Source: Candidatus Thorarchaeota archaeon
GTDB lineage: Archaea > Asgardarchaeota > Thorarchaeia > Thorarchaeales > Thorarchaeaceae
NCBI GenBank assembly: GCA_963726195.1
Contig: CAVSBO010000003.1
Span: forward strand, 352,001 to 416,000
DNA length: 64,000 nucleotides
Reading direction: 5' to 3'
The position numbers and the translations under genes are program-made. The number at the start of each line of letters is the position of its first letter. Position 1 is the first letter of the stretch. Below the pieces are notes generated by a model. It saw only the letters and a program-made list of their open reading frames with translations. It had not been told where the DNA came from and ran no database searches. This document shows positions 266 to 44,720 of this stretch, piece after piece.

Positions 266-3200
266 TTAGTCTAGTTCAATGCCCAAGCTATCGAGAAGGG
301 CCTTGAAATCTGCCTTTGACAAGGACTTTGCTTGGTCGAGTATGATGTCTACTTCCTCAGGAGCCATTCCTTTCTTCTGAAGCTTCGCCTTCAGCTCTTC
401 CATGTCGCTGGGCTTGGCTCCGAATAACTCCTTCTCAGGCTTGACGCTAGGCTTCCCAGCAGCCTTCTCTGCAAGGGCCTCAGCTCGTCGTGCTTGCTCC
501 TGAGCTATGACTTCATGGAGGAAGCCAGGCCTCTCGCTCGGCTTCATCCTTGCCAGGTCAGAACGGAAAGCATCGATTTCTTGAGCACCCAAGCCGGTTA
601 TCGAAGCTAGTTGATCTAGAAGGTCGTTGACCTCAGGAACTACAATCACAATTGGTTCTGGAGCGATATCCTCTGCTTGCTTCTCAATTCCAATGGGTTT
701 CAATTCCTTGTTCACGATTGCGAGGACGCTATCCGCTCGGGACCGCACCACGGCTCGCCGTGGAACCTTGCCGCGTCGGAGAGAACTAATCATGCGATTC
801 ATGACACGCACGAGTTTCGGCACGCTCCAGACTCTGACATAGAGCCCGACGAGAGCTGCACCTAGGATCAGAGCGGCTCCGCCAATGAGACTTACCCTCT
901 GATAGAACACCTGCTCCTGTGAAGTGTCGGACCTGACAGCAAACACGAGTACTTTCGTAGCATATTGCCCTCTTGAGAACTGGATGGTGATATGGAATGT
1001 GCCACCAGCGTTGATTCCAAAGTAGAGCAAGTATGTGCCGTTGTCAAGTTGCCTAGTCTGGTCAGCAAAGAAAGTGATGTTGCCGCCCTCCGTCGTGACA
1101 AGTGGTACCACGCCTGTAATTACTGCACCGTGATCCACGTCATAGTATGTTACAGGTATGACTATTGTCGCTCCGGGCACAGTTCGGATCGTAGTGTTTG
1201 CTGTCCTGAGCTCTGTGTTCACCTGTCTTACTGTGAGGTCAAGGGTAAACGATTCGATTTGGTAGATTGATGTGGCAAATGCTATCTCAATATGGTAGAG
1301 ATTCAGAGGCAGAGTTCCAGCAATGTCGAGTCTGTAGCTACCGTTTGTCATCTGGACTAGCGGAATCTCGCCAATTCCTGACCAGTATGATATTCCGTTG
1401 AGCCCTGAAACCGTCTGGTTGTTCAGCGTATTCACGACAGTAAACACAACTGAGGCGGTGTCATTCACAGGAAGAGATAGGGAGCTTGTCCCACGTATCT
1501 CAGCTGGCATCGCAAGTATTATGATGCTGACTTGAGTTGTCGCGGATGCATAGTTGCTCTTGGCAAGAGCAACACTCATTTGATATAGTCGAGGATTCAG
1601 CAAGGAGAGCCTAGTTGCGATGTAATAGCTTCCGTTGCCGAGGTCAGTAACGTTCGCAACACCACCTGCCCAACCTGCAGAGACTGTGGCGCCTACTATC
1701 TGCGCACCTGTGATGCTATCATTGTAGTAGACTGTGAACCAAATGATATCGCCATAGTACCCAACTCGTGTCAGCGGCTTGCCATTGGCATCAGTCGGCC
1801 TAGGCAGTATGTTCGCTATCACTGTTCTGGTAGCAGTGGCATAGCCGAGCTTGGTGGCGGTAACTCGCAGGTACAATGTCTCTGCTGCGAGCGAGGTCGT
1901 GTTGAATGTCACCCAATAGGACCCGTTTAGAAGGTCCCTGAATTGGCCTGTCAGGTTTCCAAGCACGTACGTTACATTGGCTCCTGTGAGCAAGCCGCCA
2001 TGGTATGTGTCGTTGTATGTAACCGAGATTGTAAGGTTGCTCCGATACACGACTGTGACTGAGGTTGCGCCGCCCGCCATTCGCAAGGCAGTGGGAACTG
2101 GTGCGACATTAATCCCAATGGAGAGGTCTAGGAATATGTGGTCAGTCTCGAAAGCTCTCAATGTGGCAGGATAGCTGCCTATGTTGAGACCGCTGAGGTT
2201 GACACTCGCCACATAGAAGCCAGGCGTTCCGTTGTAGACTAGTGCGCGAATCTTGTTGTTCCATTCTAATGTAACATTGTTGGCAATCACTGGCCTATTG
2301 GTAACCGTGTCGTTCAGGTAGACCCAGAACGAACCAGTAGTTCCGGTGACTATATTGTATGTAGACTGTGAGGGCATAATCTGACCGTTTGCCCTAAACA
2401 CGATTAGCACGAAAGACTGAGTGCGTGTCTGATAGTACTGCCTCGAAACGGACACCTGCGGCTGATGGTAACCGTAGTGTTTAGCTGATGTATCAAGGTT
2501 CAGCTGATATGTTCCGTTACCCAAGTCTGAGAACACATATAGAGTTCCGTTCCACAGGAGAGTAGCGTTCATGTGCGGAACATAAGTCGAGTACAGTGTC
2601 TCGCGAACACTCATTTGAATTAGAACGTGCTGCCCCCAATCCGCATAGTACGTACTCTGTCCGAGCAGTATGATTACTGTCGTCGACCCTGGCTGAGCTG
2701 TGACATTGATCGCGGATGTCTGATACAATGCCTTGACTGCTGTAATCGTAAACGGGTAGGCTTGAGCTACTAGTGCTGAGGTATTGAGTGTGATTCTGTA
2801 CACTCCACCTCCTATCTCTGCCCATGCGTAGCTTCGACCGTACCTACTCTGCCAATCACAACTTATGACAGCTCCTGCCAACGGCAGATTGTGGTCGAAG
2901 TCGGAGAGTGTGACGTTGAGAATGAACGGACTACCTACTGGCCGTGTCCCAGCAGGCGGCAAAGACGAAAGCAGAGAGGTCTGGACTAGGCGTATAACAG
3001 CAGGGACATTGTTTGTGGTTCTGTTCGCGTAGTGGTTCGCTGCACCCGTCTTGTAAACTGTGAGATTGAAGTAGAAGGTCCCAATCGATCCAAATTGCAC
3101 CGAAGGGACGAGTATGCGGTAAGCACCTCCTCCAAGCGAAACGAAGTAGTAGGTCAGAGATGTCTTGTTGCTGGATGTGAGAGTTGCTGAAGCACCTGCA

Positions 3201-6200
3201 ATGCCGGCTCCGGTTGTGTAGTCTGTATAATCAAAGTTCAGAGTAATATTGTCGAAGTACGGTGTATCAGGTACAAGTGGGAACAGTATCTGTGTGGGGC
3301 GCTCGACAGTTGTTGCGTACGTCGTTGTGCTCTTGGGAGCATAGTATGGGACACTAGTGCTCCTGTTGATAGACAACTGAATGGTCATGCTAGTGACAAG
3401 GTTCACTGCGTCAAGAAATGTCGAGTTAAATCTAATCTCATAATAGGCACCGTAGTTCGTCAACACGTAGTTGGCCGAAGTGAGTACATAAGCACCGCCC
3501 AGAACAATGGTGATGTTGTTCTTTGTGATGGCTATGTTCGAGCTTGTGATGAAGTCGATGTATTCAAACCTGAAGACCACAAACTCCTTGAATGGAGTGT
3601 CGCCGGGTGTCTGCGTCATAAGTATCTGAGTAGCTCTCTGTGTGACCTGTGAATTGACGTTTCTTGTCGAGAGCATATAGAACGGTGAACCTGCGCGAGA
3701 GACAGTCACACCAATAACATACTTGCCTATATGCCCAAGAGCCACGCTACTAATTCTGATTTGGTAGACCCCTTGGCCTTGATACGTTACCCAGTAGTTG
3801 CTGTTCTGCACAAGTGACGACGTGGAGTTAGAGCAAGCCAACGAGACCGAAGCGCCAGATATGCCTGTACTAGTTGTGTCATCAGTGTAAGTCACTGTGA
3901 ATGTCACATTCTCAAGGTAGGCTGTCGGATCCGGAGTGGCGTATCCAAGCTGTGTCGAACGCTTAAGGACTGACAAGCTGACGAAATCGACTGCATTGCT
4001 CACATAATTCGAACCCGTGTAGACTATGGTAGCGTTGAGCACGAACGTACCGTCTGACACAAAGGCTGAAGTGTCGAGAGTCAGCTGGTAGCCACCGTTT
4101 CCAAGGAAGAGTACCGTGTAGTGTCCCGAGAGAGTGGCATTGAGTGTCAGGGTTCCGGTCATTCCAGATGAGGATCCGGATATTAGGTCGGTGTACAGGA
4201 ACTGGATTATCACACTGTTTGCGTACTGAGGCGGAGTGAATGGCTGGTTTGTGAGCTGACTGCTTCTCAGAATCACTGTGACAACGAAGGCTTTGCTGCC
4301 CACCGATGCATAGAAGGGCGCGCCTGTCCAAGTCATGTTGAGATGCAGAGTGTAGGAGCCGATGCCTCCGAGACTGTGCGTATCAATGGTGATGTTGAAC
4401 AATCGTTGAGCAGAAATGTAGGTCAATGAATAGGAGACCGTGCCTTCATTCAGCCGCACCGTGAGATTGCTAGGAGAATTGGGAATGCGACTTGCAGTCA
4501 ACGTATCATAGAAGCTAAATGTGAAAACTGCGTATTGCCCGTATGGAGTAGATTGGATGGGGTTCGGATCGATATAGGTTGATCTCTGAATGGCCGTGAG
4601 GGTCACGGTCATCGTGTTGTTTTCATAGAGAGGCGACTGACCACTCTTCCACAGGAAGTCAAGCTGGAATACGAACGATCCGCACTTCCCAAAGAGGGAG
4701 CTATTCAATGCAAAGCTGTAGACGCCGCCACCCAGTCCCACCACCTTGAATTTGGCTTGTGTGACACTGTGACCACCGGTGAGGGCTGTTATCTTGAGAT
4801 GTACGTAGCCAGATGTGTTGGAAATACCTGTTCCATTCAAGACATCCCAGTAGACTGCTGTGAATGTCAGATTCTGAAGATAATAGGTGGCGCTCGGTGC
4901 TTGCTGAAGGTACAGATCGGTGGTCGTGCCCGAAACTCTCACTGCCGTACTAATGGATTTGCCATAGTAGGTAACGACAGGTCCCGTCCAGCTAACTGCA
5001 ATCGTGAGATTCTTCCAGCCAATTGAGCCCCACTGGCGCGCCATCGCTGTTATGTTGTAGTGACCCACGCCTAGGGTGTCAGCCACCATTGTGAACTTGA
5101 AGTTGGTGACGCCCGGCGCCGACACGACAATGTGGACATAGCCGCTTCCGTTAGAGATGCCGACCCCGAGGTCAGTATCCTGATAATAGACTAGGATATC
5201 TATCAGCTGGCCGTACGCGGTCTGGCTCAATGGTTGGTCCAGCGTAAATAGTGTGTTGTGAGAACGCACCTGAACGCCCACAGTAAAGGTGTGATTCTGA
5301 TAGAGGTAACGTTCAACCTTGAACAAAACGGTGTAATAGTAGTTGGGCGCTGTAAGAGGGTCACTCAACATAGTGAACACGGTGATCCTGTACACACCAG
5401 GGGAAACTTCTGCAACTGTGTAGTTTGTGTCTCCGTGCGAATGGAATGTTGTCCAATTGCAGCTAATTGAACTGCTCGAACCAGTGACAGGGTTGTTATT
5501 CTCGTCGGTCCAAGTTAGGTTAAAGTTAGCTGACTGCCCAACAGGTATTGAGAGCTGATTTGCGGAGTAAGCAATGTTGTTGTACACGCTTCTTACGTCA
5601 ACAAACATTACCATCATCTGAGTCAGGACGAATTGTGCTTTCGCTGTAATGTTCAGAGCGTTCCTGCCAATTCCATACCCGGTGGTGTTTAGCGTCATCT
5701 TATAGAAACCCAAGCCCAACGAAGTGACCTGATACGGCTTGGTCCAGTTGCACTTGATAACGGCGCCCGTGATGCCAGTGCCGTTCACGTTCTTGAAGCT
5801 CACAGTGAACGATTGATCATAGCCAATCGGGCCCGAAATGCCTGGATATTGAGGAGACTGTAACGTTGCCGCGTAGTTCACGTTCATGTAGAGAGTCGCC
5901 GTGGCATTATCATAGCGTGAACAAGTCCACTTCAGCTGCATTGTGTAACGCCCAGCATGCGTCAGACCTGAAGTGTCGATGACCTTCGTGTATTGTCCGT
6001 TTCCGCTGTCGTCGAAAGTAACAGTGCCAAGCGTCCAGGTCAACGTGAGCGTTCCACCCGCAACAACTACCTTGCTGTCGGTGTCGTTTGCCTTTATCAC
6101 GACTAGTACAAGAGCGCCGTAAGTTGCATTAGTAACCCAAGTAGTCTGAGCATCTGATGGGTACAGAATTGAGATTTTGGAAGAATGAGTTACTGTGAAA

Positions 6201-8038
6201 GGTCTCTTGAAGAATCCAGTGGACTGCCATTTGCCGCTGCTGCCCACGTCGTTCGTACTGGCTTGAATCATCCAAGCACCTGCAGTCGCGTTGGTACCTG
6301 CGAAAGTAAGGGACTTGCTGGTTGCATAGCCTGTGGCATTAGCAGTAGCATTGCCACTGTACCACTTTGATCCAGATGGGCCGTAGATAGTGATATTGAC
6401 TACCGAATTTGCGTAAGAGGCTCCAACATAGGCGCGGACTTTTGTGACGTTTCCGGCTCTGAGATTGACGGTCGCCTTCCAAGTAGAGTCCTTAGGATCC
6501 AACATCTGGATGTTCGTAATCATGTTCGCAGACTGGCTGAGGATTCGCCAGTAGCCATATCTGCCTGCGTCGGTAGCATCCTTGTATGCAGACACGTTCA
6601 CGTAACCTTGACCGATTTGTCCACCGTTCCATCCCGATGGATATGTGAGATTTGTCGAAGGAGCGAGTGGTGCGCCGACGAAGTAGACACGTCTGTTTGA
6701 TGGAATAGTCTCGTTGAAGAAGTACTTGTTGGAGTATCCTGTGGGGATATTCGCATAGAAGAAAGTTGTGTAGTAAGCCTGAGAGCCGTTCTGAATAGCG
6801 AAGCTCTGACCGTAATCAGTGGGACTAATATCAAACACGGTAAGCGTGTTAAGTCGTCGCGCGTAGAAGTTGATTGCGACATCGAACTGCACGATTATGT
6901 TAAGGTTTGGAGCAGGAGTCGCAGGCACTGGAGCCCAAGTGAAGTTCATCCGTACGGGATTGGTTCTCCACGGGGTTCCGGGAGATTGTGTGATTGTGCC
7001 CGCTCCATAACCTGTGCTGTTGACCACAGCAACACCGTTCATCTTGAGATTAACATTGGTAGGAGCAGCTTTTGTCACCAGATACAACTGAATGTTGTCG
7101 AGCTTGGCATGAGGCCTAATATTCGGGGTGTAGCCTACGGCCACCTTGCTCAACAATCCTGCTTCAAGCCACACATTTTGTACGGAAGGCAGATTGAACG
7201 TGTATGCAGGTATGAAAACCATACCGCTGTTATACCAAGTCCGCTCCGCACCGATTGAATCGAATACAATCTCCCAGATAGCTGTGCTCTGGCTTCTCAC
7301 ATACAGCGAGAACGATCCAGTCATGCCATAGTGAGTGTTGTCTCTGGTTTCTGCCCAGTAGTCCAGAGTCAAGCCGGCCCACACAACTGTTCCACGCGTA
7401 ATTGGCACGGTCTGGTTCACCCAAGCCTTGTCGCCTGAATCGTAGTTGTAGACTGGGCCGCCTCCGGTCGAGTTGATCTCCAACTCAACCGCTCCATTGC
7501 CCGTTCCGTGGCCTGTCGCGTTGTATGTACAATACGGATTGCTGCTGCCGCCCGCCCCTGTTGTACCGAGAGTCCAGTTACCACTACCGCACTTTGTGCT
7601 GAAATCGTAGTTCTTGAACCACGTGCGATTCTCAGTCAGACTTGAAACACTGACAACAGCCTTGTATGCTTCCCAGCCGCTTCCAGTGGGTACACTCACA
7701 CTTGAATTAGCCGTGGTACCGTTCGAGAAGTGCTTCACAGTCACGCTTGAATAGCTGTTAGTGCTATTCCCGAACTCGCCCGTATTGCTGCCAGTGAACG
7801 GCGCAGAGTATCCGTCCCATTCAGTCCATCCTTGATCAGTCAAGACAAACCTGTGCAACTCCTCGTCAGGGCCTATTGGAGGAATGCCGTTGACATTCGG
7901 ACCAACCTGTGTCGCTGATCCTGTCTGGCCACCGCCCAACGGCGCAGCAAGCATTCCAAGTGCGCCCGGCGAGAACATCTGAATCATTATGGCTATCACA
8001 AACAGTGCAAACGGCACAAGCTTCTTCATACGGCTCAT
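266..8038 (-). CDS. Giant type-I membrane surface glycoprotein 1 (2590 aa): signal peptide, CBM-like head, about 16 Ig-like repeats, one TM helix, ~190-aa cytoplasmic helical domain
   Basis: Intact ORF with a hydrophobic N-terminus. The motif D(L/M)GNG(T/S)Yx(L/I)x(L/I)(N/D)T recurs about every 100 aa and N-x-S/T sequons are abundant. TM segment VSLIGGAALILGAALVGLY is followed by a charged helical tail. The ATG overlaps the upstream TGA (ATGA, 8035-8038). Confidence 0.9.
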   Translation of the reverse strand: MSRMKKLVPFALFVIAIMIQMFSPGALGMLAAPLGGGQTGSATQVGPNVNGIPPIGPDEELHRFVLTDQGWTEWDGYSAPFTGSNTGEFGNSTNSYSSVTVKHFSNGTTANSSVSVPTGSGWEAYKAVVSVSSLTENRTWFKNYDFSTKCGSGNWTLGTTGAGGSSNPYCTYNATGHGTGNGAVELEINSTGGGPVYNYDSGDKAWVNQTVPITRGTVVWAGLTLDYWAETRDNTHYGMTGSFSLYVRSQSTAIWEIVFDSIGAERTWYNSGMVFIPAYTFNLPSVQNVWLEAGLLSKVAVGYTPNIRPHAKLDNIQLYLVTKAAPTNVNLKMNGVAVVNSTGYGAGTITQSPGTPWRTNPVRMNFTWAPVPATPAPNLNIIVQFDVAINFYARRLNTLTVFDISPTDYGQSFAIQNGSQAYYTTFFYANIPTGYSNKYFFNETIPSNRRVYFVGAPLAPSTNLTYPSGWNGGQIGQGYVNVSAYKDATDAGRYGYWRILSQSANMITNIQMLDPKDSTWKATVNLRAGNVTKVRAYVGASYANSVVNITIYGPSGSKWYSGNATANATGYATSKSLTFAGTNATAGAWMIQASTNDVGSSGKWQSTGFFKRPFTVTHSSKISILYPSDAQTTWVTNATYGALVLVVIKANDTDSKVVVAGGTLTLTWTLGTVTFDDSGNGQYTKVIDTSGLTHAGRYTMQLKWTCSRYDNATATLYMNVNYAATLQSPQYPGISGPIGYDQSFTVSFKNVNGTGITGAVIKCNWTKPYQVTSLGLGFYKMTLNTTGYGIGRNALNITAKAQFVLTQMMVMFVDVRSVYNNIAYSANQLSIPVGQSANFNLTWTDENNNPVTGSSSSISCNWTTFHSHGDTNYTVAEVSPGVYRITVFTMLSDPLTAPNYYYTVLFKVERYLYQNHTFTVGVQVRSHNTLFTLDQPLSQTAYGQLIDILVYYQDTDLGVGISNGSGYVHIVVSAPGVTNFKFTMVADTLGVGHYNITAMARQWGSIGWKNLTIAVSWTGPVVTYYGKSISTAVRVSGTTTDLYLQQAPSATYYLQNLTFTAVYWDVLNGTGISNTSGYVHLKITALTGGHSVTQAKFKVVGLGGGVYSFALNSSLFGKCGSFVFQLDFLWKSGQSPLYENNTMTVTLTAIQRSTYIDPNPIQSTPYGQYAVFTFSFYDTLTASRIPNSPSNLTVRLNEGTVSYSLTYISAQRLFNITIDTHSLGGIGSYTLHLNMTWTGAPFYASVGSKAFVVTVILRSSQLTNQPFTPPQYANSVIIQFLYTDLISGSSSGMTGTLTLNATLSGHYTVLFLGNGGYQLTLDTSAFVSDGTFVLNATIVYTGSNYVSNAVDFVSLSVLKRSTQLGYATPDPTAYLENVTFTVTYTDDTTSTGISGASVSLACSNSTSSLVQNSNYWVTYQGQGVYQIRISSVALGHIGKYVIGVTVSRAGSPFYMLSTRNVNSQVTQRATQILMTQTPGDTPFKEFVVFRFEYIDFITSSNIAITKNNITIVLGGAYVLTSANYVLTNYGAYYEIRFNSTFLDAVNLVTSMTIQLSINRSTSVPYYAPKSTTTYATTVERPTQILFPLVPDTPYFDNITLNFDYTDYTTGAGIAGASATLTSSNKTSLTYYFVSLGGGAYRILVPSVQFGSIGTFYFNLTVYKTGAANHYANRTTNNVPAVIRLVQTSLLSSLPPAGTRPVGSPFILNVTLSDFDHNLPLAGAVISCDWQSRYGRSYAWAEIGGGVYRITLNTSALVAQAYPFTITAVKALYQTSAINVTAQPGSTTVIILLGQSTYYADWGQHVLIQMSVRETLYSTYVPHMNATLLWNGTLYVFSDLGNGTYQLNLDTSAKHYGYHQPQVSVSRQYYQTRTQSFVLIVFRANGQIMPSQSTYNIVTGTTGSFWVYLNDTVTNRPVIANNVTLEWNNKIRALVYNGTPGFYVASVNLSGLNIGSYPATLRAFETDHIFLDLSIGINVAPVPTALRMAGGATSVTVVYRSNLTISVTYNDTYHGGLLTGANVTYVLGNLTGQFRDLLNGSYWVTFNTTSLAAETLYLRVTATKLGYATATRTVIANILPRPTDANGKPLTRVGYYGDIIWFTVYYNDSITGAQIVGATVSAGWAGGVANVTDLGNGSYYIATRLSLLNPRLYQMSVALAKSNYASATTQVSIIILAMPAEIRGTSSLSLPVNDTASVVFTVVNTLNNQTVSGLNGISYWSGIGEIPLVQMTNGSYRLDIAGTLPLNLYHIEIAFATSIYQIESFTLDLTVRQVNTELRTANTTIRTVPGATIVIPVTYYDVDHGAVITGVVPLVTTEGGNITFFADQTRQLDNGTYLLYFGINAGGTFHITIQFSRGQYATKVLVFAVRSDTSQEQVFYQRVSLIGGAALILGAALVGLYVRVWSVPKLVRVMNRMISSLRRGKVPRRAVVRSRADSVLAIVNKELKPIGIEKQAEDIAPEPIVIVVPEVNDLLDQLASITGLGAQEIDAFRSDLARMKPSERPGFLHEVIAQEQARRAEALAEKAAGKPSVKPEKELFGAKPSDMEELKAKLQKKGMAPEEVDIILDQAKSLSKADFKALLDSLGIELD

Positions 8039-11000
8039 AACTTCTCGCCTCCAATCTGATCCAGCAGGGCATCTATCTCTGCTTTTGTGAGATTCCTGGC
8101 TTGTTCAATCATGATATCGGCTTCGCTCTCTTCTATTCCCATCTCGATGAGCCGCTCACGGAGTTGCTTCAGCTCGCTCTCTGTGAGCTTCCTCTCAAGA
8201 TGTTCAACTGCCTTGCCGGGCATCGCTGCCTTCTCAGCTTCGACGAGTTCGCGTGCTCTGCGGGCACGTTCCTGCCTCAGCACTTCACTTACAAATCCGG
8301 CCCTTTCGCTAGGTCTCATCTTTTCTAGGTCCTGTTTCAGCACTGCGACGTCACTTTCGCTGAGGCCAACCACTTGGGCCAGCTCAGTCAGCAGCTTCTC
8401 GACATCAAGGATTGAGATATCTACTGTGGACAGACTGACATCCTCAAGACTCTTTGAAACTCCAATCTCAGCGAGTTCATCGTTCATTAGGTCCAGCAAC
8501 ATCTCTCTTCTGTCCCTGACTGCTGCCGGGCGTGGAATGTCGCCCTTGCTCAGCTTCCCGACCATCGACCTAATTCGTCTCAGCATGGGGGGTACTGACA
8601 GTACCTTGACGTACAAGGCCCCAAACGCGGCGATGAGTATCAACGCCAATGAGCCGTAAGTGAATGCAGTAACCAACATTGCCTGCTGGGGCGAGATGAG
8701 AGAGTAGATCACGGTCGAGTACACAGCTGTGGCATAGTCTGCCTTGTCGAAATGCACCTCCAGACTCAGATCGCCAGCCTGAGGCGCATTGAAAGCGAGC
8801 ACATATGTGCCGTTGCCAAAGTCTAGACTCTGGCTAGACACATAGTAGAGATCCGTCCCGGGTGTGCTGTTGTAAGCACTTGCTATCGGCTTATTGTGGT
8901 CGACATCCCAATAGGTCAGCCGAACCACGAAGGTGTCTCCTGCAAAGATGGTCGTTGGCGGCGGCACAACCACGAGCTGAGTCAGCTATCTTTCTAATTG
9001 TAAGATAAAGAACAAACTCTGCGTGACTGTAGTTGCCTCTGGAGAACTGAATGTGAACCACATACGGCGTGTTTCTCACTTCGAGTCGAGCGATTCCCGA
9101 CTCAATCGCTCCAAATTCATAGGACCCATTGCCAAGATTAGTCAGGGATGCGACACCAAACTCCCAAACTGCTGTGGCAGTAGCATCAGTCAGTAGGTGA
9201 TTGTTGAGCGTGTCGTTGAATCGGAAAAGCTGCCTGTAGTCGTCGCCTACCGGTACCGAGACTGTCTGCGTGCCCATGACTGCAGTCGGAATGGGCCTCA
9301 CGATGAGCTTCACTACGGTGAAGGCATAGTCGTATCGTGACCTATGCATGGAGATGTAGACATCGTGGCTGACAGCTCCTGCAGTCAGCAGCCTTGTATC
9401 TATGACCAAGGAGTAGTTGCCGTTCTTCAGATCAGTAACGGTTCCTCCAAACGATTCGAGGGTGAACTGACCTGTTCCATTCACAATCGGCTGGTTGTTG
9501 TGAGAATCCCAGTAGGCAAACAAGAACGTTACATTCCTGCCGTAGTAGCCTTCCTGCAGTGGACTAGACAAGACCAAGATAGTTGTGGGAACTTGGGTAA
9601 TTGTAACAGTGAGCTGGATTGAAGATGGAGAGTAACCAGTCTTAACGCCGGATACTGTCAGCACCCAATCACGAATGTCGCTTGTGCCCGTGGGAACGCT
9701 AGCTGAGTAGTACCCTCCACCAATGTCAGAAAGATTACCCACATGAGCTCCCAAGCTGTCAGCTTAGCATGCCACCAGTCACTGATTCGTTCAAGGCTGT
9801 ATTGTTCAGGTACACTGTGACGTTCAAATGGTCTCCTGACACGATCGTGTAGACCGTGTGGCCCAGGTAAGCCTTGAGTTCCGTCGGGATTTCTGTGATT
9901 TCAATTGTCACCTGGAAACTCACTGTCGCGTAGTTGTCGGATGATGCAACGACAAGGATTTGGTGAGTACCTACTGGAGCTCCGTTGACAACAGACTCGG
10001 CAACGTACATTGAGCCATTCCATGTCAGTATTCCCGAACCTCCGACCCAGCCGTACGTTAGATGACCAAACCTGATCGGAGTGCTATTGGACTGGATGAG
10101 GTACCGAGCAGTAATAGTAAGACCGTGCCCGTTGACAGTGATTGTGGGGTTAATCCCACCAGACGTCGTTGCTCCGACTTTGGCGATTCTAATCTGAAAG
10201 CCCTGAGAGCGGGTTTCATAGTTCGTAAGAATGAATGAAACCGTCATCGTATACTCGCCGGAAACGTACTGCCCGGTGAGCACAGTGCATCGGTATCTCC
10301 CGCCACCAATACCAGACATAACGTAAGTGTGAGAAGAGAGAGTTAGATTGACGCTTGCTCCGGATATGGGAGTCCCTGTCCTAAAGTCGGTAATGTTCAC
10401 TTCAATGATGACGGTATCACCCCACGTTGGAGCAACAGGGGTCGTTTGCAGAACGATGCTCACAGGCGTGGGAGATAGAACAATGTCAGCGATGATAGTC
10501 TGGTTCACGTAAAGGTACTTCGAAGCGCTGATAGCAAAACTGTACAGCCCGGCATTCAGACTTGCAGTCGTTATGCTAAGCCTGTACACTCCATTGCCCA
10601 TGAAAGTGATAGTCGCACTAGTTGAGTATCGAAGCGTCCAATTGGTACTGACAGAGGCACCGTTTATGCCGGCACCCGTCGAGATCGGCCTGAATGTGAT
10701 ATTCCCCACAACGGTGTCGCCCAAGTAATGGAGAGAACCGATTGGGAGATCAAATGAGAGAACTGTGGAAACCGGGTTGACCGCTACGTTGAATGCTATG
10801 CCAGTTACGTTCTGATAGTACGGCAGGCCAGTCCAAGTCAGGTTGGCCAGGAAGTAGTACCTTCCTAGCGATGGCAGGAGAGTTGTGTTGACACTCACTA
10901 GGTAGGTGCCATCGCCCATGCTGATTCCCCAACCCTGCACGGAAGTCTTGTTCAAACACTTGAATTTCAGGACGGCGCCAGCTATCCCTGTGCCCTTGAG

Positions 11001-14000
11001 GTAGTCTGAATACTTTATCACCGCGGTTATGTTGTAATAGTAGTACGCAGGAGGAGCAGAGATGACGCTTGCTTGGGTGTATCGACCAGTGATGGTAACC
11101 TGAGTCGTGGCTGTCGAATTCGAGTAGTATGGAACGACGTTGCCCCAGAATAAGGTCAATCCTATTGGATGGTTAGTGACCAATGATGATCCTATGAGGG
11201 TGGAGTTGAATGAAATCGTGTACACTCCATTGCTTCCTGTCAGAGAGTAGCTTGCAGAACCAATGGGAGTGCCTGAACCATGAGTAAGGATTAGAACTGA
11301 CTTTGTCAATGTGATTGGTGTGCCTGACAAGCCATCGGTCGCAGTGATTTCAAAGGTCACGTACTCTAGGTATGCAGTATTGAGTGGAGACCTCGATACA
11401 GTGAGGCTCGCGGGTCTTCTTGAAACCTCAATACTCACCGATCGAACACGTTGCATATAAAACGGATTTCCTGTATAGTTGGCAGTAACGACTATCGAGT
11501 ACGGTCCGAAGTTGCCCAGAGCAACTGTCGAGATCCGGATTCTGTAGTAGCCATCGGTAGCATTGTAGTATACCCAGTAGTTACCTCCTTTGGCAAGCGG
11601 GTATGATGAATTCCCGCAGCTCGCGTAGATGTTTGCGCCCGGTATCGCCACACCTGTTGTGTCGTCACTATATCTCACCATGATCGTGGCATTCGTCAAA
11701 TAGGGAGCGAGGTCAGGTGGCAGGCTGGTCAACTGAGTACGTCTTTGGATTAACGTTAGGTAGAAGAAGTCAGTAGCATCCAAGCAGTATCTTGCGCCGT
11801 TGTAATGTATGCTCGCATTGACTCTGAAGACACCGAGAGATAGAAAGGTGGTCGTATTGAGAGTCAACGTGTACGTGCCGTCATTATTGTCCAGTATCGT
11901 GTAGTGACCAGATAGCGATGAATCAAGGGTCAGCGTACTACCCTTCATGCCGGCAGTCGTGCCATCATCATCATCCCTGTATGTGAACACGAGAATCAGA
12001 TTGTCTTTGTACTGAATAGGGGCGTACGAGCCGTGTGATAGGTCGGTGTTTCTGTATCTCACTGTTATGGGCACAGGAATGTGAGTCTGGTTCTGGTAGA
12101 ACGGCTTTCCAGCCCATATTACGTTGAGATGGAATGTGTGCGTGCCAGGAGTCCAAGAATTAGTATTCAGTCGAATCTTGAAGACACCAGTTGCATTTCC
12201 AAGATAGTATACCGTGTATGAAATGGGCTCGTCCAGCGTAATAGTGAGCATACTTGTCTTTAGTATCGGATTGCCCGTGATAGAATCTCTATAGACAAGA
12301 GTGAGATTCACGAGTGTGTCATATGGAGTTACGGGTATTGGAGTCCAGTCCGCAGCAGTGAGACGAGAAGTGGTGTATACAGTTACGAGCAGAGTCTTGT
12401 TGTCATATTGTGGCAACTGTCCCTTGGTCCAGTTCAGGAAAATCCTCAACTGACAGCCGATGAGCCCGCTAAGATAGGCTTGTACTGAATACGATACGGT
12501 ACTCACCAGGCCTGCTGATAGGACTAACCTCCGTGATTGTCATTACACTCTGTGTCAGAGTCTGACCTGGAGTCAATACAGAGATGTAGATCTTTACGTT
12601 CCACTTGTATGGGCCGGTCCCGTTTGTGATACCTGTCGCGTTGGATACATCAAAATAGATTACTGTGAAGTTGGCATTTTCGCCATACGGAGTAATGACA
12701 GGGCTTTGGCCAATGTATAGGTCAGTAGGAGACGATGTAATGCTTGCACTAGTGCTGATGACCTTGTCATAGTACTTCGTAGTCGGGCCTGTCCAGTTTG
12801 CGTATATGACAAGAGGCTCTGACCCAATTGTGCCCCACTGGTCAGCACGGATTATGATCACGTAATACCCAGGCTGGGTCCCATTGACTACTTGATACTT
12901 GAGTCCCGGCAAGGTTGAGCTTGTCACGCGTATCTTGACGTAGTAGCCGACCGTGGAGCCATTCTGAATACCCACCATGAGGTCAGAATCGAAATATGAC
13001 ACGTTGATGTAGACACGGCCAGTGTACGGGGTCCGGCTAATCGCGTTCAGAAGACTGAATGATGTCAGGTGAGTTCTCAGAACAACTGTTACAACGAAGG
13101 TGTGGTTCTGAGCTCCGTACTTTAAGACGTTGAAAACGACAGCGTACGAACGCAAAGCATCTGAATCCTTCGAGAAAAGCGTGACTTGGTAGACTCCCGG
13201 AGTTCCGGTTGTTGTGACTGTGTAGTTCTGGTCGCCTTTGACGTGTATGCTAGACCAGTTGCAGCTGATTGCGCTTGCAGCACCTGTAATAGGAGTCCCA
13301 TGGTCCGTGTCTGTGTACGTGATTGTTAGAGATGCGCTATAGCCCACGGGGACGGAAAGCAGACTTGCAGACGGGATAGCTGAGGTATGGAGATCCCTTA
13401 CTTGCAGGGAGAGAACAATCGACTTTGTTGCAAAGTAGTCCCTCCTTGCGGTGATGTTTATGTGGTAAGTTGCGAGTGGAGCCGCACTAGTGCGCAAAGT
13501 CAAATCATAGTAGCCGGGTTTTCCTGCCTCTGGGGTGACACTATAGGTATCCTTGGTCCAGTTGCACGAGACCAAAGCATTCTGAATTGCGTTGCTCTTC
13601 TGGTCTGTGTAAGACACATGGAAAGTAGCGTTATACCCTTTCGGCACATCGACACCCGGAGCGTCAGAGGAGAACAGATTACTCGTGTATATCACATTAA
13701 TTGTGAATGTCTTCGAAATCGAATCATAGTAGGTCTTGGACCATAGTAGATTCACAATGAATTGGCCATTGGATGACAAGAGGCTTGTATTGAGTGTCAC
13801 GCTGTATTCTCCGGTCCCTAAGTCAGCAACTTGTCCGGAGCCAGCCGCCCAAGAATAGGTCATGGCTCCCCCGGGGAGCATGACTCCTCTGTCCGAGTCA
13901 TTCACTCTGAATTGCAGAAGCACCAGATCGCCGTACGTTGCATTGTATGTCCACGAAGTGACAGAAGATGAGGGGTACTTAACGGCCATCTGGGTCGAGT

Positions 14001-16692
14001 GATTAACGGTGAACCCTCTGCGGTAGAATCCTACGTTTCTCACAGCTCCTCCGCCAGATACAGAGTCAAACACGTAGGCCTGGACTTCCCAAGACCCGAC
14101 CGTAGCGTTCGAGGATGCGAACGTAACGTACCCGGTGGTTGCGTAACCAGAGCTATTGATCGTCGCTTGAAGTGTCTTCCAGAGGTTGCCACTAGAATCA
14201 TACACGCTGAAGTTGACTTTATTGCCAGAATAGGAAGTGTTAGAGAATGACGCAAGGAATCTTGTTTGTTCGTTTGCTCTGAAGGCCTTCGTCGTGACCC
14301 ACTGAGAGGTAAGCGTGTTCCATACCTTAAGGTTCGAAATCATGTTTGGCGAATAGCCCTTCATGTCCCAGAATCCATTCTGGCTTGTCGTCGTGACCTT
14401 GTACACTGAGACATTGACCTTCCCATCGCCAACTTTCCCGTAGGACCATTGAGAGCCGTACGTGAGGTTCGTTGTACGGAAGTTGGGTTGAGATACAAAG
14501 TTGACGTCCCTGTCTTTTGGTATCGAGACGTTGAAGAAGTAGTATGACGAGTATCCTCCGGGCACGGCGGGATAATGGTTTGTCTCCCATTGAACTAACG
14601 AAGCATTTTGCACCACGAAGTTGTCGCCGGTCGTGAACTTTGCGGTATCGTTCACCGTAAGCACATTATACCTTCGAGCCCATACTGTTACGTAAGTGTT
14701 AATCGCGATTGAGATTGTCATGTCCGGGTTAGGAGGATTTGGAATAGGCGTCCAAGAGAAATTCCCATAGGCACTGCCAGACTGCCAAGGGATGGCAGGC
14801 GAGTATGTAGCGGTTCCTCGACCGAAGATAGGTTGTGAGCCATTCATGACATTGCTGACCACTACGCCATCCATCTTGAGATTGATGTTCTGAGGAGTGG
14901 CTTTGGCTTTCATGTATATCAGTAGATTATCTACCCTGCCCTCAGGTCCGATTTCAGGTCTGTACCACTCGCTTTGCGTATCTCGCAGACCTGCCATGAT
15001 TGTTACGTTCGGAAGAGTGATAGAAGACGTGCTTACGGGCAATAGACCCGTGGAGTACCATGTATTTGGAGCGGCTATCGCATCGAATGCCTTGCTCCAC
15101 AAGTAGGTGCCACCCGCATCTGGGTCACCTATTGAGACAAAAAGCTGGAAGAAGCCAGTCATGTATCCACCCCATCCTCGGCAAGATGCATAGTAGTCCA
15201 GCGAGATTCCGAGCCATGTGATTTGGCCTCTGGGAATACTCAGCTTTTGACTGACGAAGGCCTTGGTGCCAGGGTTGTACCAGTAACCGTACAGCCCGCC
15301 TCCTGCATCATGATAGAAACCATTGAGGACGAAATCGGGTGATGGGTTCCCTGCGCCGTGCCCGGTGGCCGACCACGTACTAGCAGGACGGTCTCTTGCG
15401 CTACTCTCGGTCGTATAGATGTAACCCGTGGAATTCACTGCAATTCCATAATTGAAGTGGAAGTTGCCGTTTCCTGAACCATCAGAACCCCATGAGGAGG
15501 TGCCGCCGGTCACATTGTTGTAGGTATAGACTCGATGGTTGCCTGCGTCATCAATGTACACCATGCCAGTCGATGAATAGGCGGCAATCCCTTCGGGTGT
15601 CAGCATTCCTGAACCAATTGTCGTAGCACTGGCCCCAATCTCGGAGAAGCGGCGCACTTGGCTTCCTGAGGTTTGGACCTCGCTCACGAAGACTTGCCTG
15701 CTGACTTGTAGGATTGCTATTCCATGAGGCAGCCCCACACTCGCCCATTGGCCGACGTACGAACCTGTATCGCTAAAGTACTGTACCCTTGAGTTTCCAG
15801 AGTCAACAACATAGGCACGGTAGTTGTAGTTCATGATAGCTATGCCAACCGGACCATGAAACAGCCCATTTCCCTCACCGGTTGAGCCCCATGATCTCTG
15901 ATAGACGCCTCGGGCATTGAAGACCTGAATCCTGTCATTTCCATAGTCTGCCACATACACATAGCCAGTGTTATTTACAGCGATACCCATGGGCCTGTCA
16001 AATTGCCCGGTGCCAGTTCCGTAAGTCCCCCACTTGAACTGGAACACTCCATTGCGATTGAATACTTCGATACGGTTGTTGTAAGTATCCGCGACATAAA
16101 CGAACCCTGTAGAGTTAATTGCGATGCCCCATGGATCGGTGAAATTGCCGTTTTGCGCGCCCCTTGAGCCCCACTGTCTCTGATATACGCCCGCCGAGGT
16201 AAAGACCTGTACCCTGTCATTCCCTGAGAAGTAACCTTCAAGCTGGCCGGTCCCGTAACTCCAGTTTGCGTTCGTGGCATAGCCAGAGTTGCCGACCCAA
16301 GTCCTGTTCTCAGTGACGTCAGTCAAGTTCCCAAGCACTTTGTAACCTTGCCACGCGTTTCCGAGGGGCACGGAGAGGTTTGCGGTCGTTGTCTTCTGAG
16401 TTGACGGGTTATAGATCATGCTACTTCCAGTGAATGTGTCTGTCCGTGTGCCGTATTCTGACACCACGAGCGGCGAACCCACACCAGTCTTCTGGCTTGG
16501 TGCAGCCGACAAGACATACTCGTAGAGTATCTCATCAGGACCAACTTCGATGGTCGTGCCATTTCCAAGGTCGACTATTCTTGAACCTGATTGAGAAGAA
16601 GACACATTCGGCAATAGGGGGTTGATCATAAAACTCCCCAATGTCATCGATGCCATCATGAAAAGCACGACAATGAATCGAGTTGGTCTCAT
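8035..16692 (-). CDS. Giant type-I membrane surface glycoprotein 2 (~2880 aa reconstructed) with NHL beta-propeller; split into 4 ORFs by 3 probable sequencing indels
   Basis: ORFs 12469-16725, 9759-12506, 8891-9754 and 8035-8973 are colinear with protein 1. Removing one base at each of ~12475, ~9760 and ~8985 restores STSLLSGLIG, LSYSLGAHVG and RKIATQLVVV. Likely ATG at 16692 (MRPTRF) after an AGGAG. NHL repeats of the type PxGIAVNxxGxVYVADxxNxRIQVF are present. Confidence 0.85.
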
Positions 16693-16725
16693 GCACAGGA
16701 CTCCTGTAGTTTGAGAGAGAATCAA

Positions 16726-16800: not shown

Positions 16801-16956
16801 AGATGGCCGCTAGACACCGTTCCAAATGACGGCGAGTCGTTCGATTAATCGACATGAGCCACGGCAATCACATGACTCGCCTGCATGTTCTCTGCTGGTT
16901 CACTAACACAACGGGAATCTTATTACGCTGAAGTGGTTCGCGCGTTGCGATTCAAG

Positions 16957-19540: not shown

Positions 19541-21703
19541 TCAGGCCCTCGTTTTCTTGTAAGCTATGAGCACTACTACCACAGCTCCAATCACTGTCAT
19601 GCTCAGGACGACCATCAACGCGGCACTCCATGGAGGTCCGATCAAGTTCTCTCCGATTACCTGAATGTGGTTCGACTCAACCTTATTCAGTCCCCAGTCG
19701 TATGCTTCCACCCACAAGCTCAGTGTGCTAGAGTTGCCCAAGCCCAGAACGCGTGTCGCGTAGTTGCTTCCAACGGATGTGCAAGGGAGGACGATTTCAG
19801 TGGTATCATTCACGAGAAGGTGTGCAGTGACATTCTCGACACCTGCCAAATCATCCTCGACCTGTGCCCATACGGTGAAGTTGTTGTAGCTGGAGTCGTG
19901 TGGAACCACGCCCCAAGCCTTGATTTGTGGCGGGTTGTTGTCAACCATTGAATAGACGAGTCGCCTGCTCCAATCTTTTGCAGCACAAAGAGCCCGATAG
20001 CACCCTTGCCAGTCCATATGCTCATACCTATCGTTTGCTAGCGAGAAGGCACTCAGGGCTTCGTGCTCGGCTAGGAAAACCTTAGGTAAGTCACTGGGCT
20101 GCACGTCAGCACTACCTCGTTCAAAGCGTGCCCACACGTCTGCTTGCATTTGGTCAAGGTATGTGCCCTGAGCCCAATTCCTGTCGAATGTCGACGTGCC
20201 ATTGTGGGACCCAAAGTAGCCCATTGGGCCGTAGCTGAAATCACCCACGTAGTGATAGTAATCCCAAGTGTGTCCAAAACCAATCGCGTGCATCGCTTCA
20301 TGAAGCTGAGTCTCGGAAACACCGCACTTAGGGGTGACCCCATCCGGACGATAGTAACGCTCCCAGCTCTTCCATATCACTGTCTGTCCGTCACCACCAA
20401 GACCGGTGTATGCTCGCCCATAGACCTGCATTTCCATGTTCTTCTTTACGAAGACAACACCAAACACATTGATGTTCGGGTCTTCCACATTGATGTATTG
20501 TGGTCTCATCTGCGTGTAAATCGCATCAAACATCGAACCGCCATCAACAATCAACTTGCCATTGATAACCTGCGAATACTCTTGGAACAATGTCAACCAA
20601 TCCGGGTAATTGTCGATGTCAAGATACTGCACGTCCACCGTCCACGGGATGAACGGCAAGAGCTCGGACAGGGCATATGCCTGCTTCTGAGCATTGGTCA
20701 CCCACCGAAGGCTATCGACCGTGATGTTATCGGAAACATCCATACAAGAGACGAGCACTTTCATCAGCCCTGAATGAGCGTAGGCCGAGGGAGAGTGCTC
20801 GCCGGGAACCATCAGATATGCGATTGGGTCATGGATATAATCGCGAAGATACGAATTGAGGGCGATACGGCCCGCGGCTGTGGAGAGGTCAAGCGCAGAT
20901 ACTATGTCTTCTAGATCTTCTGTGCAATGTTGGTACTCGTTGACATAGGGCGGATCACTCCACCAGATTCTTGCCCACCGCAGATACCACTGGTCCGCCG
21001 AAGGGTCGAGAACATAGATGTTCCCTCTTCCTCCGAAGCCAGCATACTCGAGCTTGACGTCAAGATTCAGAGAGTTGTCCCATTCAAGTCTGAACCAATC
21101 CTGTTTCTGGCCGCTGTCAGGATCGATTGGGCGGTAGTCGTACCAGTGCTCAAGCTGGTGACCGGGTGTATCTAGCTCCGAGAAGTTGAACAAATAGTAA
21201 ACATACCCGAGGTCTGGTGGTCTAACTGCAGGATTGGCAATCAACCAGTCCTCAACAGGGTACGCATCAATAGCCCTACCTGCACGCGGATAGAAGATAC
21301 TTTGGGGTTGATTCAGGTGAGTCTTTTGATAGTAGAGGTTGTTCTCGTTGATTCTCGTACCAGTCTCAGATCCGTTCACTGAGTGTGCCATCATGACCTG
21401 CAAGAGACTACTCGTGTACGAAGCGTTTGCAGAAAACAGGTCGTAGTGCACATCATAGATGATAGTTGCGCCATCGGTCGCGTAGACTCTTTGAGTCGGG
21501 AGTCCGGTAGTCAGGATTGTTGAGTTGAGAAAGGCGATGCCATAGTTCACCGCCACGATATGAATTGTCCAGTTACGTGTGACATTCACCGGGCCTCCCG
21601 CAAGTTCCATTGCACTCAACACTGGCTGGTTGGCTGATGCCCAGCCAACGGGGACCAATAGTGAGAAGACAATACCCAAGATAAGATAGGCCCCGCAGCG
21701 CAT
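19541..21703 (-). CDS. Secreted, C-terminally anchored zinc metalloprotease (metzincin-like)
   Basis: HEAMHAIGFGH fits HExxHxxGxxH, followed by a Met-turn-like SYGPMGY. Signal peptide, Ig-like domain and C-terminal TM with basic tail. GAGGAG lies upstream of ATG 21703. Confidence 0.8.
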   Translation of the reverse strand: MRCGAYLILGIVFSLLVPVGWASANQPVLSAMELAGGPVNVTRNWTIHIVAVNYGIAFLNSTILTTGLPTQRVYATDGATIIYDVHYDLFSANASYTSSLLQVMMAHSVNGSETGTRINENNLYYQKTHLNQPQSIFYPRAGRAIDAYPVEDWLIANPAVRPPDLGYVYYLFNFSELDTPGHQLEHWYDYRPIDPDSGQKQDWFRLEWDNSLNLDVKLEYAGFGGRGNIYVLDPSADQWYLRWARIWWSDPPYVNEYQHCTEDLEDIVSALDLSTAAGRIALNSYLRDYIHDPIAYLMVPGEHSPSAYAHSGLMKVLVSCMDVSDNITVDSLRWVTNAQKQAYALSELLPFIPWTVDVQYLDIDNYPDWLTLFQEYSQVINGKLIVDGGSMFDAIYTQMRPQYINVEDPNINVFGVVFVKKNMEMQVYGRAYTGLGGDGQTVIWKSWERYYRPDGVTPKCGVSETQLHEAMHAIGFGHTWDYYHYVGDFSYGPMGYFGSHNGTSTFDRNWAQGTYLDQMQADVWARFERGSADVQPSDLPKVFLAEHEALSAFSLANDRYEHMDWQGCYRALCAAKDWSRRLVYSMVDNNPPQIKAWGVVPHDSSYNNFTVWAQVEDDLAGVENVTAHLLVNDTTEIVLPCTSVGSNYATRVLGLGNSSTLSLWVEAYDWGLNKVESNHIQVIGENLIGPPWSAALMVVLSMTVIGAVVVVLIAYKKTRA

Positions 21704-21908
21704 GAGCTCCGCATCTCCTCTTCTGATATTAACAACTCGGTGACAGCATGCTGGCAATCATCCCCGAGAAGATGCCTATCCGTGTCCTGCACAGCTCGCT
21801 CTCAGTTCTACCCTGTCAGGACCAAACATTCCCCACACGAACCATTATAAACGGCATAGAACCTGCCCGACGACAGTCCAAAGACAGTCGGGTCTAGAGG
21901 CTAACGGA

Positions 21909-23403
21909 TTGCCAACTACTAAGAAACTGATTGATGAGTTGAAAGGGATTGTCGGACCCGAAAACGTGTTCTATGATGCCGCTCATTTGAAAGAGTACTC
22001 TGACCAACTGAGTCTCTTCAAAACGAAGTCGCCTTCCGCAGTGGTCTTGCCAGAATCGACAGAGGAAGTTCAGCAGCTTGTGAAGCTTGCCAACAGACGA
22101 TCAATCCCCTTGATTGCGGTAAGCTCAGGAAAACCCAAGCTCCGAGGAGACTCTGCTCCGAAGATTGATGGTGCGGTCGCGGTCGACCTCAGGCGTCTGA
22201 ACAAGATACTTAGAGTCGACACGAAGAACAAGGTGGCCATGGTCGAGCCGGGGGTCACCTATTCTCAGTTAGTTGAGAAACTAAAAGGTCAGGGACTCAG
22301 GCCGCTTATGTCGTTCCTGCCGAAAAGCAGTAAGTCGGTCGTTGTGAACTGCTTGGACAGAGAGCCAATAACGATGCCTCGTTTCCATTGGGATTCATCA
22401 GACCCTCTTCTCTGCACAGAAGTCGTCTTTGGTTCTGGCGATCTGTTCCGAACCGGAGCAGCAGCAGGACCCGGCACGCTAGAAGAGCAATGGTCCTCAG
22501 GCCAAGCACAGAAGAATCCGATGGGGCCGTCTCAGTTTGACCCGTTCAGGATAATCCAAGGCTCTCAGGGAACCATAGGCATCGTCACGTGGGCCTCAGT
22601 GAAATGCGAGACTGCTCCTGTTGAGCAGCGCATTCTCATCTCAGGCTTCGATGAGCTGACCAGACTCCTTGGACTTCATTCAGTCGATTACAAAGCGCAA
22701 ACTAGTCGATGACCTCTTCGTGCTAAACTCGACAAATCTGTCGTGTGCACTAGAGGCAAGTCCCGCAAAGATTCAGAAAACGCGTGCCAGTTTGCCGGGA
22801 TGGGTACTGGTGTTGAGCGTTTCGGGACACGGCATCTTAGCCACTGATGAATTGGATTACAGATTGGCAGACACTCTTGACATAGCGAAAGAGATGGGGT
22901 TGGAACTCAAGAAGCAGATTGGCGGCGTGACCTCTACACGAGTTGGAGCCCTTCTCGGAGTCCCGAGTGATGAACCGTACTGGAAGCTCAGACTTCGAGG
23001 TGCATGTCAAGAAGTGTTCTTCATTACGACGCTGAATCACATACCCGAATTCTGCTCAGTTTTCGAACAGACGGCGAAAGAAGAGGGCTTCCCTGACAGT
23101 GATATTGGAATCTACATACAGCCGACGCTTCATGGGACGAATGCTCACTGCAATTTCGACATTTACTTTGATCCAATCGACAAGGCAAGAGTTGGACTGG
23201 CACAGCGATTATACTCTAAGGGCTGTGAAAGACTCCTTGCCAAGGGTGCGTTCTTCAGCAGGCCCTGCGGCCCAGTGACCGAGGCGGTCTTCAAGAAGAC
23301 GCCACCCGAGAATGTCACTGCAATGAAGAAAGTGAAGGACATATTCGACCCGAAACATGTGTTGAATCCGGGTGCTTTGTGCTTCGAGGAGGCCTCAAAA
23401 TGA
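21909..23403 (+). CDS. FAD-binding oxidoreductase (VAO/PCMH/GlcD-like); one probable sequencing frameshift at ~22667
   Basis: Motifs PSAVVLPESTEEVQ, DLRRLNKIL...VEPGVT, GTIGIVT and C-terminal KDIFDPKHVLNPG. ORFs 21909-22712 and 22669-23403 join when one C is removed. Confidence 0.85.

Positions 23404-41799: not shown

Positions 41800-44720
<2,921 letters not shown>

Follow-up and report, generated by a model that had tools for sequence, protein, structure and literature searches.

Two overlapping genes for giant membrane proteins

The window analysed here is a stretch of 64,000 nucleotides (nt) from the genome of a Candidatus Thorarchaeota archaeon (assembly GCA_963726195.1, contig CAVSBO010000003.1, positions 352,001 to 416,000). 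On its minus strand, positions 266 to 16692 carry two giant genes, called A (upstream) and B (downstream) in the following, which encode paralogous type-I membrane proteins. Each protein has a Sec-type signal peptide, an all-beta head of about 600 amino acids (aa), a stalk of immunoglobulin-like (Ig)/MG domains, one transmembrane (TM) helix and a cytoplasmic tail of about 186 aa. It is proposed below, tentatively, that A and B would be two subunits of one conserved surface structure.

Gene B is intact and forms a single open frame. In contrast, the region of gene A (8035 to 16725) shows four successive frames of 1418, 915, 287 and 312 aa. Comparison by tblastn with B and with an intact 2907-aa ortholog of the same genus indicates that the four frames are one colinear gene with three interruptions. 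The likely start of A is the ATG at 16692, opening with MRPTRF. From there to position 8038 the span is 8655 nt (16692-8038+1), and 8652 nt, that is 2884 aa, once three single inserted bases are discounted. The main features of the pair are the following.

266..8038, minus strand: gene B, type-I membrane glycoprotein of 2590 aa; single frame, stop codon 266-268
7952..8038, minus strand: predicted signal peptide of B, aa 1 to ~29; hydrophobic N-terminus MSRMKKLVPFALFVIAIMIQMFSPGALG
7073..7633, minus strand: jelly roll of the B head, CBM/MAM/Eph-LBD-like, aa ~136-322; structure model and VIA-align
932..6175, minus strand: stalk of B, 17 tandem Ig/MG-like repeats of ~102 aa, aa 622-2369; iterated profile search
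827..895, minus strand: TM helix of B, aa ~2382-2404; hydrophobic run VSLIGGAALILGAALVGLYVRVW followed by basic residues; helical in the structure model, with pLDDT above 90
269..826, minus strand: cytoplasmic tail of B, ~186 aa; alignment and structure model
8035..16692, minus strand: gene A, upstream paralog, 2884 aa after discounting three insertions; stop codon 8035-8037
15385..16224, minus strand: NHL beta-propeller of A, set into a loop where the jelly roll begins; Pfam NHL and DUF5128
12477..12489, minus strand: frame break 1 of A, one extra base at ~12481-12486 in TTCAGTACAAGCC
9756..9766, minus strand: frame break 2 of A, extra G at ~9760 in AGCT[G]ACAGCT, creating a TGA
8977..8987, minus strand: frame break 3 of A, extra G at ~8983 in AGCT[G]ACTCAGCT
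8599..8676, minus strand: TM helix of A, LVTAFTYGSLALILIAAFGALYVKVL
8038..8598, minus strand: cytoplasmic tail of A, homologous to the B tail (38% identity)
8035..8056, minus strand: coupling junction of A and B, GGAGG and ATGA stop/start overlap

A first-pass annotation of the stretch had described two colinear paralogs of ~2884 and 2590 aa, overlapping by ATGA, each ending in one TM helix and a homologous cytoplasmic domain. All of this is borne out. The two lengths differ by 294 aa, which, as had also been noted, nearly equals the length of the NHL insert. At the junction, the end of A reads GAG AAG TTA TGA and overlaps the start of B, ATG AGC CGT, so that stop and start codons share the letters ATGA. 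A GGAGG motif sits inside A, about 9-15 nt before the ATG of B. It corresponds to the Gly-Gly codons of the conserved C-terminal (I/L)GG of A (window 8040-8056) and is found at the same place in the related loci L012-L028. The same bases would thus double as the conserved end of one protein and the likely ribosome-binding site of the other.

BLASTP and tblastn show A and B to be 39% identical across 966 aa of head and repeats. The value is 33% for the 933 aa that follow, and 36-38% for the segment made up of the last repeat, the TM helix and the tail. The shared motifs listed in the first-pass annotation are real and are conserved in an alignment of 33 heads. Invariant positions of this alignment include E107, N108, R109 and W111 of the ENRTW motif, as well as many columns of Trp, Gly and Pro. 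The head consensus also includes PDExLxxYxLS, VPxGxxWEGY, GHGxGD and SLDYWAD.

Conservation and inheritance of the pair

Many Thorarchaeota genomes have a B ortholog, with lengths of 2552-2633 aa. Using the head as query, adjacent A-type and B-type genes were found in 22 of 24 genomes of the window's family. Where A and B lie on separate contigs, a contig ends inside a gene; in genome G013, the A tail lies directly upstream of B. Gene order is A then B in all 17 pairs that were fetched. When the window is added to these same-order pairs, the junction is an NTGA overlap in 14 of the 18 cases and TAATG in two. GGAGG precedes the start of B in the pairs of family f1.

Recurrence of the pair and of two distinct clades across Thorarchaeia had been suggested as a check, singletons or recent lineage-specific duplicates being the adverse outcome. 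The homologues are paired and their clades are old. In a tree of 728 head columns, one branch (SH-aLRT 99) separates the upstream from the downstream genes, and the genome of the sister family, G025, is basal in each clade. The duplication that gave rise to A and B thus predates the split of the two families. The tail tree agrees with the upstream/downstream division within the window's family; both are quick-search trees. Moreover, a deep division into two pair types is seen in each half of the head tree. One genome, G005, carries an A-B-A-B array with one pair of each type (L023 and L024; G005:C22:1-31000). The two pair types of this genome are deeply separated and are otherwise found in different genera. 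A and B are thus inherited as a unit across the order and duplicate only as a pair.

Within each clade, pairwise identity is even along the rod (mean 0.38-0.60) and highest in the tail units (0.64). Between A and B, it is lowest in repeats 12-17 (0.19-0.27).

Could A and B nevertheless be independent adhesins that share an operon and act separately, as monomers or homo-oligomers? They would then have different ligand specificities, one head carrying the jelly roll alone and the other the jelly roll with the NHL domain. The heads have indeed drifted apart, their jelly rolls being only 34% identical, and the NHL domain was gained by A only, in some lineages. Other giants with the same tail also occur as single genes, as exemplified by a third paralog of ~3,800 aa. 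However, in independent adhesins the number of repeats is usually variable, and each gene comes and goes on its own. By contrast, A and B keep 17 repeats each, in fixed order and with an overlap, and duplicate only as a pair. Separate action is therefore rather unlikely, while still deserving to be kept in mind.

A shorter relative was noticed in a distant Asgard family (L029; G035:C24:88000-98000). It has 1515 aa and 7 repeats, matches the tail more weakly and is likewise followed, after a gap of 116 nt and with no overlap, by a second Ig-repeat gene with a signal peptide.

The frame breaks in gene A

The first-pass annotation had pointed to indels in A. These are present, and each can now be specified as one extra base, at ~12481-12486, 9760 and 8983. 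Apart from these breaks, A is colinear with the intact 2907-aa ortholog of the same genus, at 57-64% identity across all four frames and with no further stops. Elsewhere, A orthologs are intact at 2882-2916 aa. When the present metagenome-assembled genome (MAG) was compared with a genome of the same genus, 19 frame changes, nearly all +1, were counted over 37,720 aligned aa, and 16 of 94 ordinary genes were hit. In other words, a single-base insertion breaks the frame roughly once in every 6 kb of coding sequence. Since ordinary genes carry the same +1 breaks and A orthologs are intact, the three breaks of A are most likely systematic consensus errors of the MAG and not a sign of gene decay.

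That A would be a decaying pseudogene, B acting alone in this organism, is suggested at first sight by the three breaks, one of which makes an in-frame TGA. However, the same +1 breaks recur about once per 6 kb in ordinary genes, five are found in the third giant gene, and the remainder of A follows its intact ortholog over its full length. Such a decay is highly improbable. Programmed frameshifting or recoding in A was rejected, given the breaks of the same type in the 16 ordinary genes.

Many break sites, localised with the help of orthologs, lie in AGCTGA, CTGAG or TCAGAC contexts. Further insertion sites were seen at G000:C3:691154, 204121 and 645113. The pattern suggests a systematic error of the consensus, which a motif or methylation may have favoured. 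A crude screen for a genome-wide enrichment of AGCT at junctions of open reading frames (189 of 639, versus ~21% expected) was too unspecific to be used. Within the window, an FAD-linked oxidase gene (21909-23403, plus strand) is apparently split, its FAD_binding_4 piece (21909-22712) and its FAD-oxidase_C piece (22669-23403) being in different frames. This is probably another assembly indel. Calls of pseudogenes or split genes in this genome should consequently be taken with caution.

The heads: a jelly roll and an NHL propeller

An AlphaFold2 (AF2) model of B aa 30-740, built from the 33-sequence alignment, is all-beta with a mean predicted local distance difference test (pLDDT) of 86.7. The N-terminal signal stretch of B is unstructured and of low confidence. 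Residues 103-293 of the model (aa ~132-322) match the jelly rolls of CBM16, CBM4, CBM61, MAM domains and the Eph ligand-binding domain (Eph-LBD), with VIA-align Z-scores of 11-12.6. The root-mean-square deviations are 2.8-4.1 Å over 126-169 aligned residues, which assigns a fold class only. The B head can thus be placed in the CBM/MAM/Eph-LBD jelly-roll fold. At the level of sequence, Pfam gave no family match for the jelly roll, and a Pfam scan of the head at E-values up to 10 returned nothing meaningful. Further along the model, residues 476-692 match MG/Ig-like domains of complement proteins, of SlaB and of an adhesin extender (VIA-align).

Foldseek comparison of the modules had been recommended. 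It returned a Nitrosopumilus S-layer protein, Eph ectodomains and adhesins for the whole chain, but these matches are generic, with TM-scores of 0.13-0.2. Eph receptors and RPTPmu (MAM-Ig-FN3) are alike in that a jelly-roll ligand-binding domain precedes beta-sandwich modules (Foldseek E-value 1e-9; VIA-align Z 11.4 for 2v5y). The likeness is at the fold level only, with 7-10% identity, and A and B have no kinase or phosphatase domain.

The A head differs by an insert. B aa 159 aligns to A aa 438, and the ~280 extra aa of A are NHL repeats, recognised by Pfam as NHL (PF01436; 83.7 bits versus a cut-off of 20) and as the '6-bladed beta-propeller' DUF5128 (30.8 versus 22.9). No NHL, and no other match at all, was obtained in the Pfam scan of B. 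The beta-propeller foreseen as a tip by the first-pass annotation is present in the A head of the window, but it is not general: only some members of the A clade have the insert, and A orthologs of 2568-2649 aa without it occur in about half of the genera examined.

The NHL domain calls to mind the teneurins, which are membrane proteins with an extracellular NHL propeller, and A has a weak match to TEN_NHL. This match (24.9) remains below its cut-off (27.1), and A is of type I, with a signal peptide and a C-terminal TM helix, whereas teneurins are of type II. Moreover, A shows no matches to EGF or YD-shell repeats and no toxin domain.

Integrin alpha and beta chains offer another analogy, and nothing more than an analogy: two type-I subunits, one propeller in the head, Ig-like legs, single TM helices and cytoplasmic tails. 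In contrast with integrins, A and B are mutual paralogs and have neither the seven-bladed FG-GAP propeller, nor a betaI/vWA-like domain, nor integrin tail motifs; Pfam detects only NHL-type families in A and none in B. The A propeller also differs from that of integrins in being six-bladed, inserted in a jelly roll and missing from many A orthologs. Hence, the loose comparison with integrins and teneurins made in the first-pass annotation stands for the architecture, but membership of either family fails on the defining domains.

The stalk and its glycosylation sites

An iterated hidden Markov model search resolved the stalk of B into 17 tandem repeats of ~102 aa (aa 622-2369; E-values 1e-12 to 1e-25). 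Exactly 17 repeats are found in all 33 complete proteins of the A and B types, which come from 17 genomes in two families. The stalks of A and B are thus matched in length, as had been supposed, but the estimate of about 16 Ig modules has to be corrected to 17. One more Ig-like domain is predicted at B aa ~505-621, where it appears in the structure model only.

Giant Ig-repeat adhesins such as SiiE, LapA, MpIBP and Bap have a comparable organisation, with a binding head carried by a long extender of ~100-aa Ig-like domains attached at one end. SiiE and the extender of a 'large adhesion protein' are among the fold-search matches. These adhesins are products of single genes, use type-1 secretion or sortase, have near-identical repeats in variable number and lack a cytoplasmic domain. 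A and B, on the other hand, have a Sec signal, a C-terminal TM helix and a folded tail, and they form an obligatory paralog pair. Their repeats are divergent and fixed at 17 (33 of 33), which separates them from the Bap/SiiE/LapA type.

The ectodomain of B carries 77 N-X-S/T sequons over 2368 residues, that is 3.25 per 100 aa, or about one per 31 residues. The median of the genome is 0.30 per 100 aa, and B stands at or above the 99th percentile of the genome's long open reading frames. The tail of B has no sequon. This distribution fits a type-I topology.

Dense sequons, export and a C-terminal membrane anchor are also the marks of S-layer glycoproteins, and B displays all three. One may thus ask whether A and B are a two-component S-layer, that is, lattice-forming envelope glycoproteins comparable to the paired S-layer genes of other archaea. 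The archaeal S-layer glycoproteins (Haloferax csg, Nitrosopumilus SLP, Sulfolobus SlaA/SlaB) are likewise heavily N-glycosylated Ig arrays anchored in the membrane by their C-termini, and the SlaA and SlaB genes are adjacent, as are A and B. Near-universal presence (tail profile matched in 72 of 76 genomes of the family) would also suit an S-layer. S-layer proteins of Nitrosopumilus and Haloferax are among the top Foldseek matches, and SlaB appears in the VIA-align list, but the fold matches are of a generic multi-Ig kind (TM-score 0.13) and no sequence relationship was detected. In addition, a rod of 18 modules is far longer than known lattice subunits. To our knowledge, no described S-layer protein has a conserved, folded cytoplasmic domain of ~186 aa. 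The sequon density of B falls within the range quoted for S-layer proteins of thermoacidophiles (PMC11284389). However, the two cultured Asgard archaea show no ordered S-layer and have instead protruding 'complex surface proteins', to which a role in contacts with syntrophic partners is ascribed (PMC9834061). A lattice of A and B is unlikely, although an S-layer-like coat is still a serious rival. The first-pass annotation had held that the pair differs from a simple S-layer. This is true of the cytoplasmic tail alone, whereas the sequons, the Ig array, the C-terminal anchor and the wide presence would fit an S-layer-like coat equally well.

The cytoplasmic tail

The tail of B begins with juxtamembrane helices. 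They are followed by a three-helix unit with an M(K/R)PSERxGF motif, which a linker joins to a second three-helix unit at the end of the tail. The AF2 model of the tail is helical (pLDDT 84), and 26 columns are invariant in an alignment of 36 sequences. In the preceding TM helices, motifs of small residues are present and differ between the clades. Pfam scans of the A and B tails at E-values up to 10 yielded no family (E-values of at least 0.035). Foldseek gave no match in the PDB at E of 0.001 or less, the best VIA-align Z-score was 7.2, below the noise level for helical models, and a search of the ESM Atlas returned no usable match. A possible internal duplication of the tail was also considered, but it is not supported: when its two helical units were compared by hhalign, the probability was 6%, over 14 columns.

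A profile of the TM helix and tail matches only 176 clusters among 1.84 billion representative proteins. In most of them, the match lies at the C-terminus of a protein of 1,200-5,500 aa. Strong matches occur in 72 of the 76 genomes of the window's family and in the one genome of the sister family, weaker ones in several other Asgard families. A Thorarchaeota genome has about 2-10 tail-bearing proteins. On the basis of these sequence comparisons, the tail may be regarded as a new family, a putative module by which giant surface proteins in general are anchored or docked, A and B being their conserved core pair.

The third giant paralog, mentioned above, lies on the same contig (G000:C3:693126-704341, minus strand, equivalent to L011:3126-14341). 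It is a single gene with the same TM and tail module. In the present genome its frame is broken five times, whereas the G003 ortholog, of 3876 aa, is intact. The terminal helical unit of the tail is a variant one in this paralog (...EIDTIMEQAKKLP...).

Given these tails, an integrin-like signalling heterodimer may be imagined, in which ligand binding by the heads would be passed via the TM helices to tails engaging cytoskeletal or signalling proteins of the Asgard cell. The genetic pairing, the conservation of the tail units, which are the most conserved segments, and the clade-specific motifs of the TM helices are in line with this idea, as is the sharing of the tail module with other giants in several Asgard families. 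Against it, Pfam scans of A and B revealed no integrin, talin-binding or kinase-related motif or domain, and no conserved gene for a cytoplasmic partner was found nearby. Furthermore, a rod of 17 modules is a poor conduit for conformational signalling, and the occurrence of the tail on many unrelated giant ectodomains better fits generic anchoring or sorting. Signalling of this kind is very unlikely. The same must be said of its bolder version, a long shot, where A and B would form a prokaryotic integrin-like (not integrin) obligate heterodimer of two rods matched in length, with lectin-type heads gripping partner cells or particles and tails coupling to Asgard actin or ESCRT. If true, it would explain in molecular terms the cell-cell contacts that models of eukaryogenesis call upon.

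A paired surface structure

The fixed gene order, the overlap with its ribosome-binding motif, the near-universal co-presence, the congruent trees, the duplication as a pair and the invariant number of repeats argue for a shared function that requires both proteins in matched amounts and with matched geometry. The simplest reading of these genetic data would be a side-by-side hetero-oligomer. That A and B are two subunits of one conserved surface structure of Thorarchaeota is thus proposed as a tentative view, whose chances are judged somewhat short of even.

In this model, translation of A and B would be coupled, yielding near-equimolar amounts of the two proteins, and the two length-matched rods would assemble side by side as a hetero-oligomer. 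Fully extended, with 18 modules of ~4 nm each, the rods could project up to ~70 nm from the cell. They would form a glycosylated fibrous coat or an adhesive canopy, whose heads may bind glycans on particles or on partner cells. The shared tail would dock a cytoplasmic partner that anchors, sorts or positions giant proteins. A fibrous coat or adhesion apparatus is favoured by the build of the proteins, in which a long glycosylated rod links a lectin-like head to a membrane anchor, and by the lack of an ordered S-layer in cultured Asgard cells.

Several points weigh against this proposal. The case for a contact between A and B is indirect, and proteins with no mutual binding can likewise be coupled in translation and inherited together. 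A CBM-like fold, as predicted by the model, is no proof of glycan binding. Similarly, the tail has no recognisable fold relative, and its docking function is suggested by conservation only. Finally, four of the 76 genomes of the family have no tail match, all four being incomplete MAGs (66-88% complete).

Full-text searching of the literature found no description of the A/B family, and its members in the databases are all called 'hypothetical protein' from Candidatus Thorarchaeota. No source names the family as an S-layer protein, a possibility that the first-pass annotation had left room for. Three features are undescribed for other prokaryotic surface proteins: the obligatory, translationally coupled paralog pair, the repeat number fixed at 17 and the folded tail of an apparently new family, shared with other giant Asgard proteins. 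The A/B pair is a concrete, order-wide candidate, in Thorarchaeota, for a structure like the 'complex surface proteins' of the cultured Asgard archaea.

Neighbouring genes and other features of the window

One neighbour of the pair may be functionally related to it.

19541..21757, minus strand: type-I membrane protein of ~735 aa with a metzincin motif, co-oriented with A and upstream of it

The motif reads HEAMHAIGFGH (metzincin-type), and orthologs keep HE(A/T/S)MHAIG(F/I)GH and a C-terminal TM helix. In four genomes, this gene is found 117-402 nt upstream of A on the same strand, and it is nearby in two more. In the present genome, a P-type ATPase gene (16885-19482, plus strand) lies between the two. 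Pfam gave no match for the protein, and a sequence search of the PDB returned only spurious subtilisin matches to the TM region. Judging from the motif, this membrane glycoprotein may be a membrane-anchored protease acting on the giant proteins or on extracellular substrates.

Comparison of the flanks across genomes disclosed no conserved gene for a cytoplasmic partner in the neighbourhood of A and B. The block downstream of B (Trp/Tyr-tRNA synthetase, PHP and LPG_synthase_TM, UbiA, DUF362) is convergent to B and starts with a housekeeping gene; for these reasons, it was set aside as ordinary synteny and is not counted as part of the system.

Finally, positions ~42000-44700 (plus strand) hold about 2.7 kb of purine-rich, low-complexity DNA with a GC content of 0.33 and an AT skew of 0.5. 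It contains microsatellite-like arrays of A and G and poly(A) runs of 38, 135 and ~129 bases, and could be an assembly artefact or an unusual spacer.

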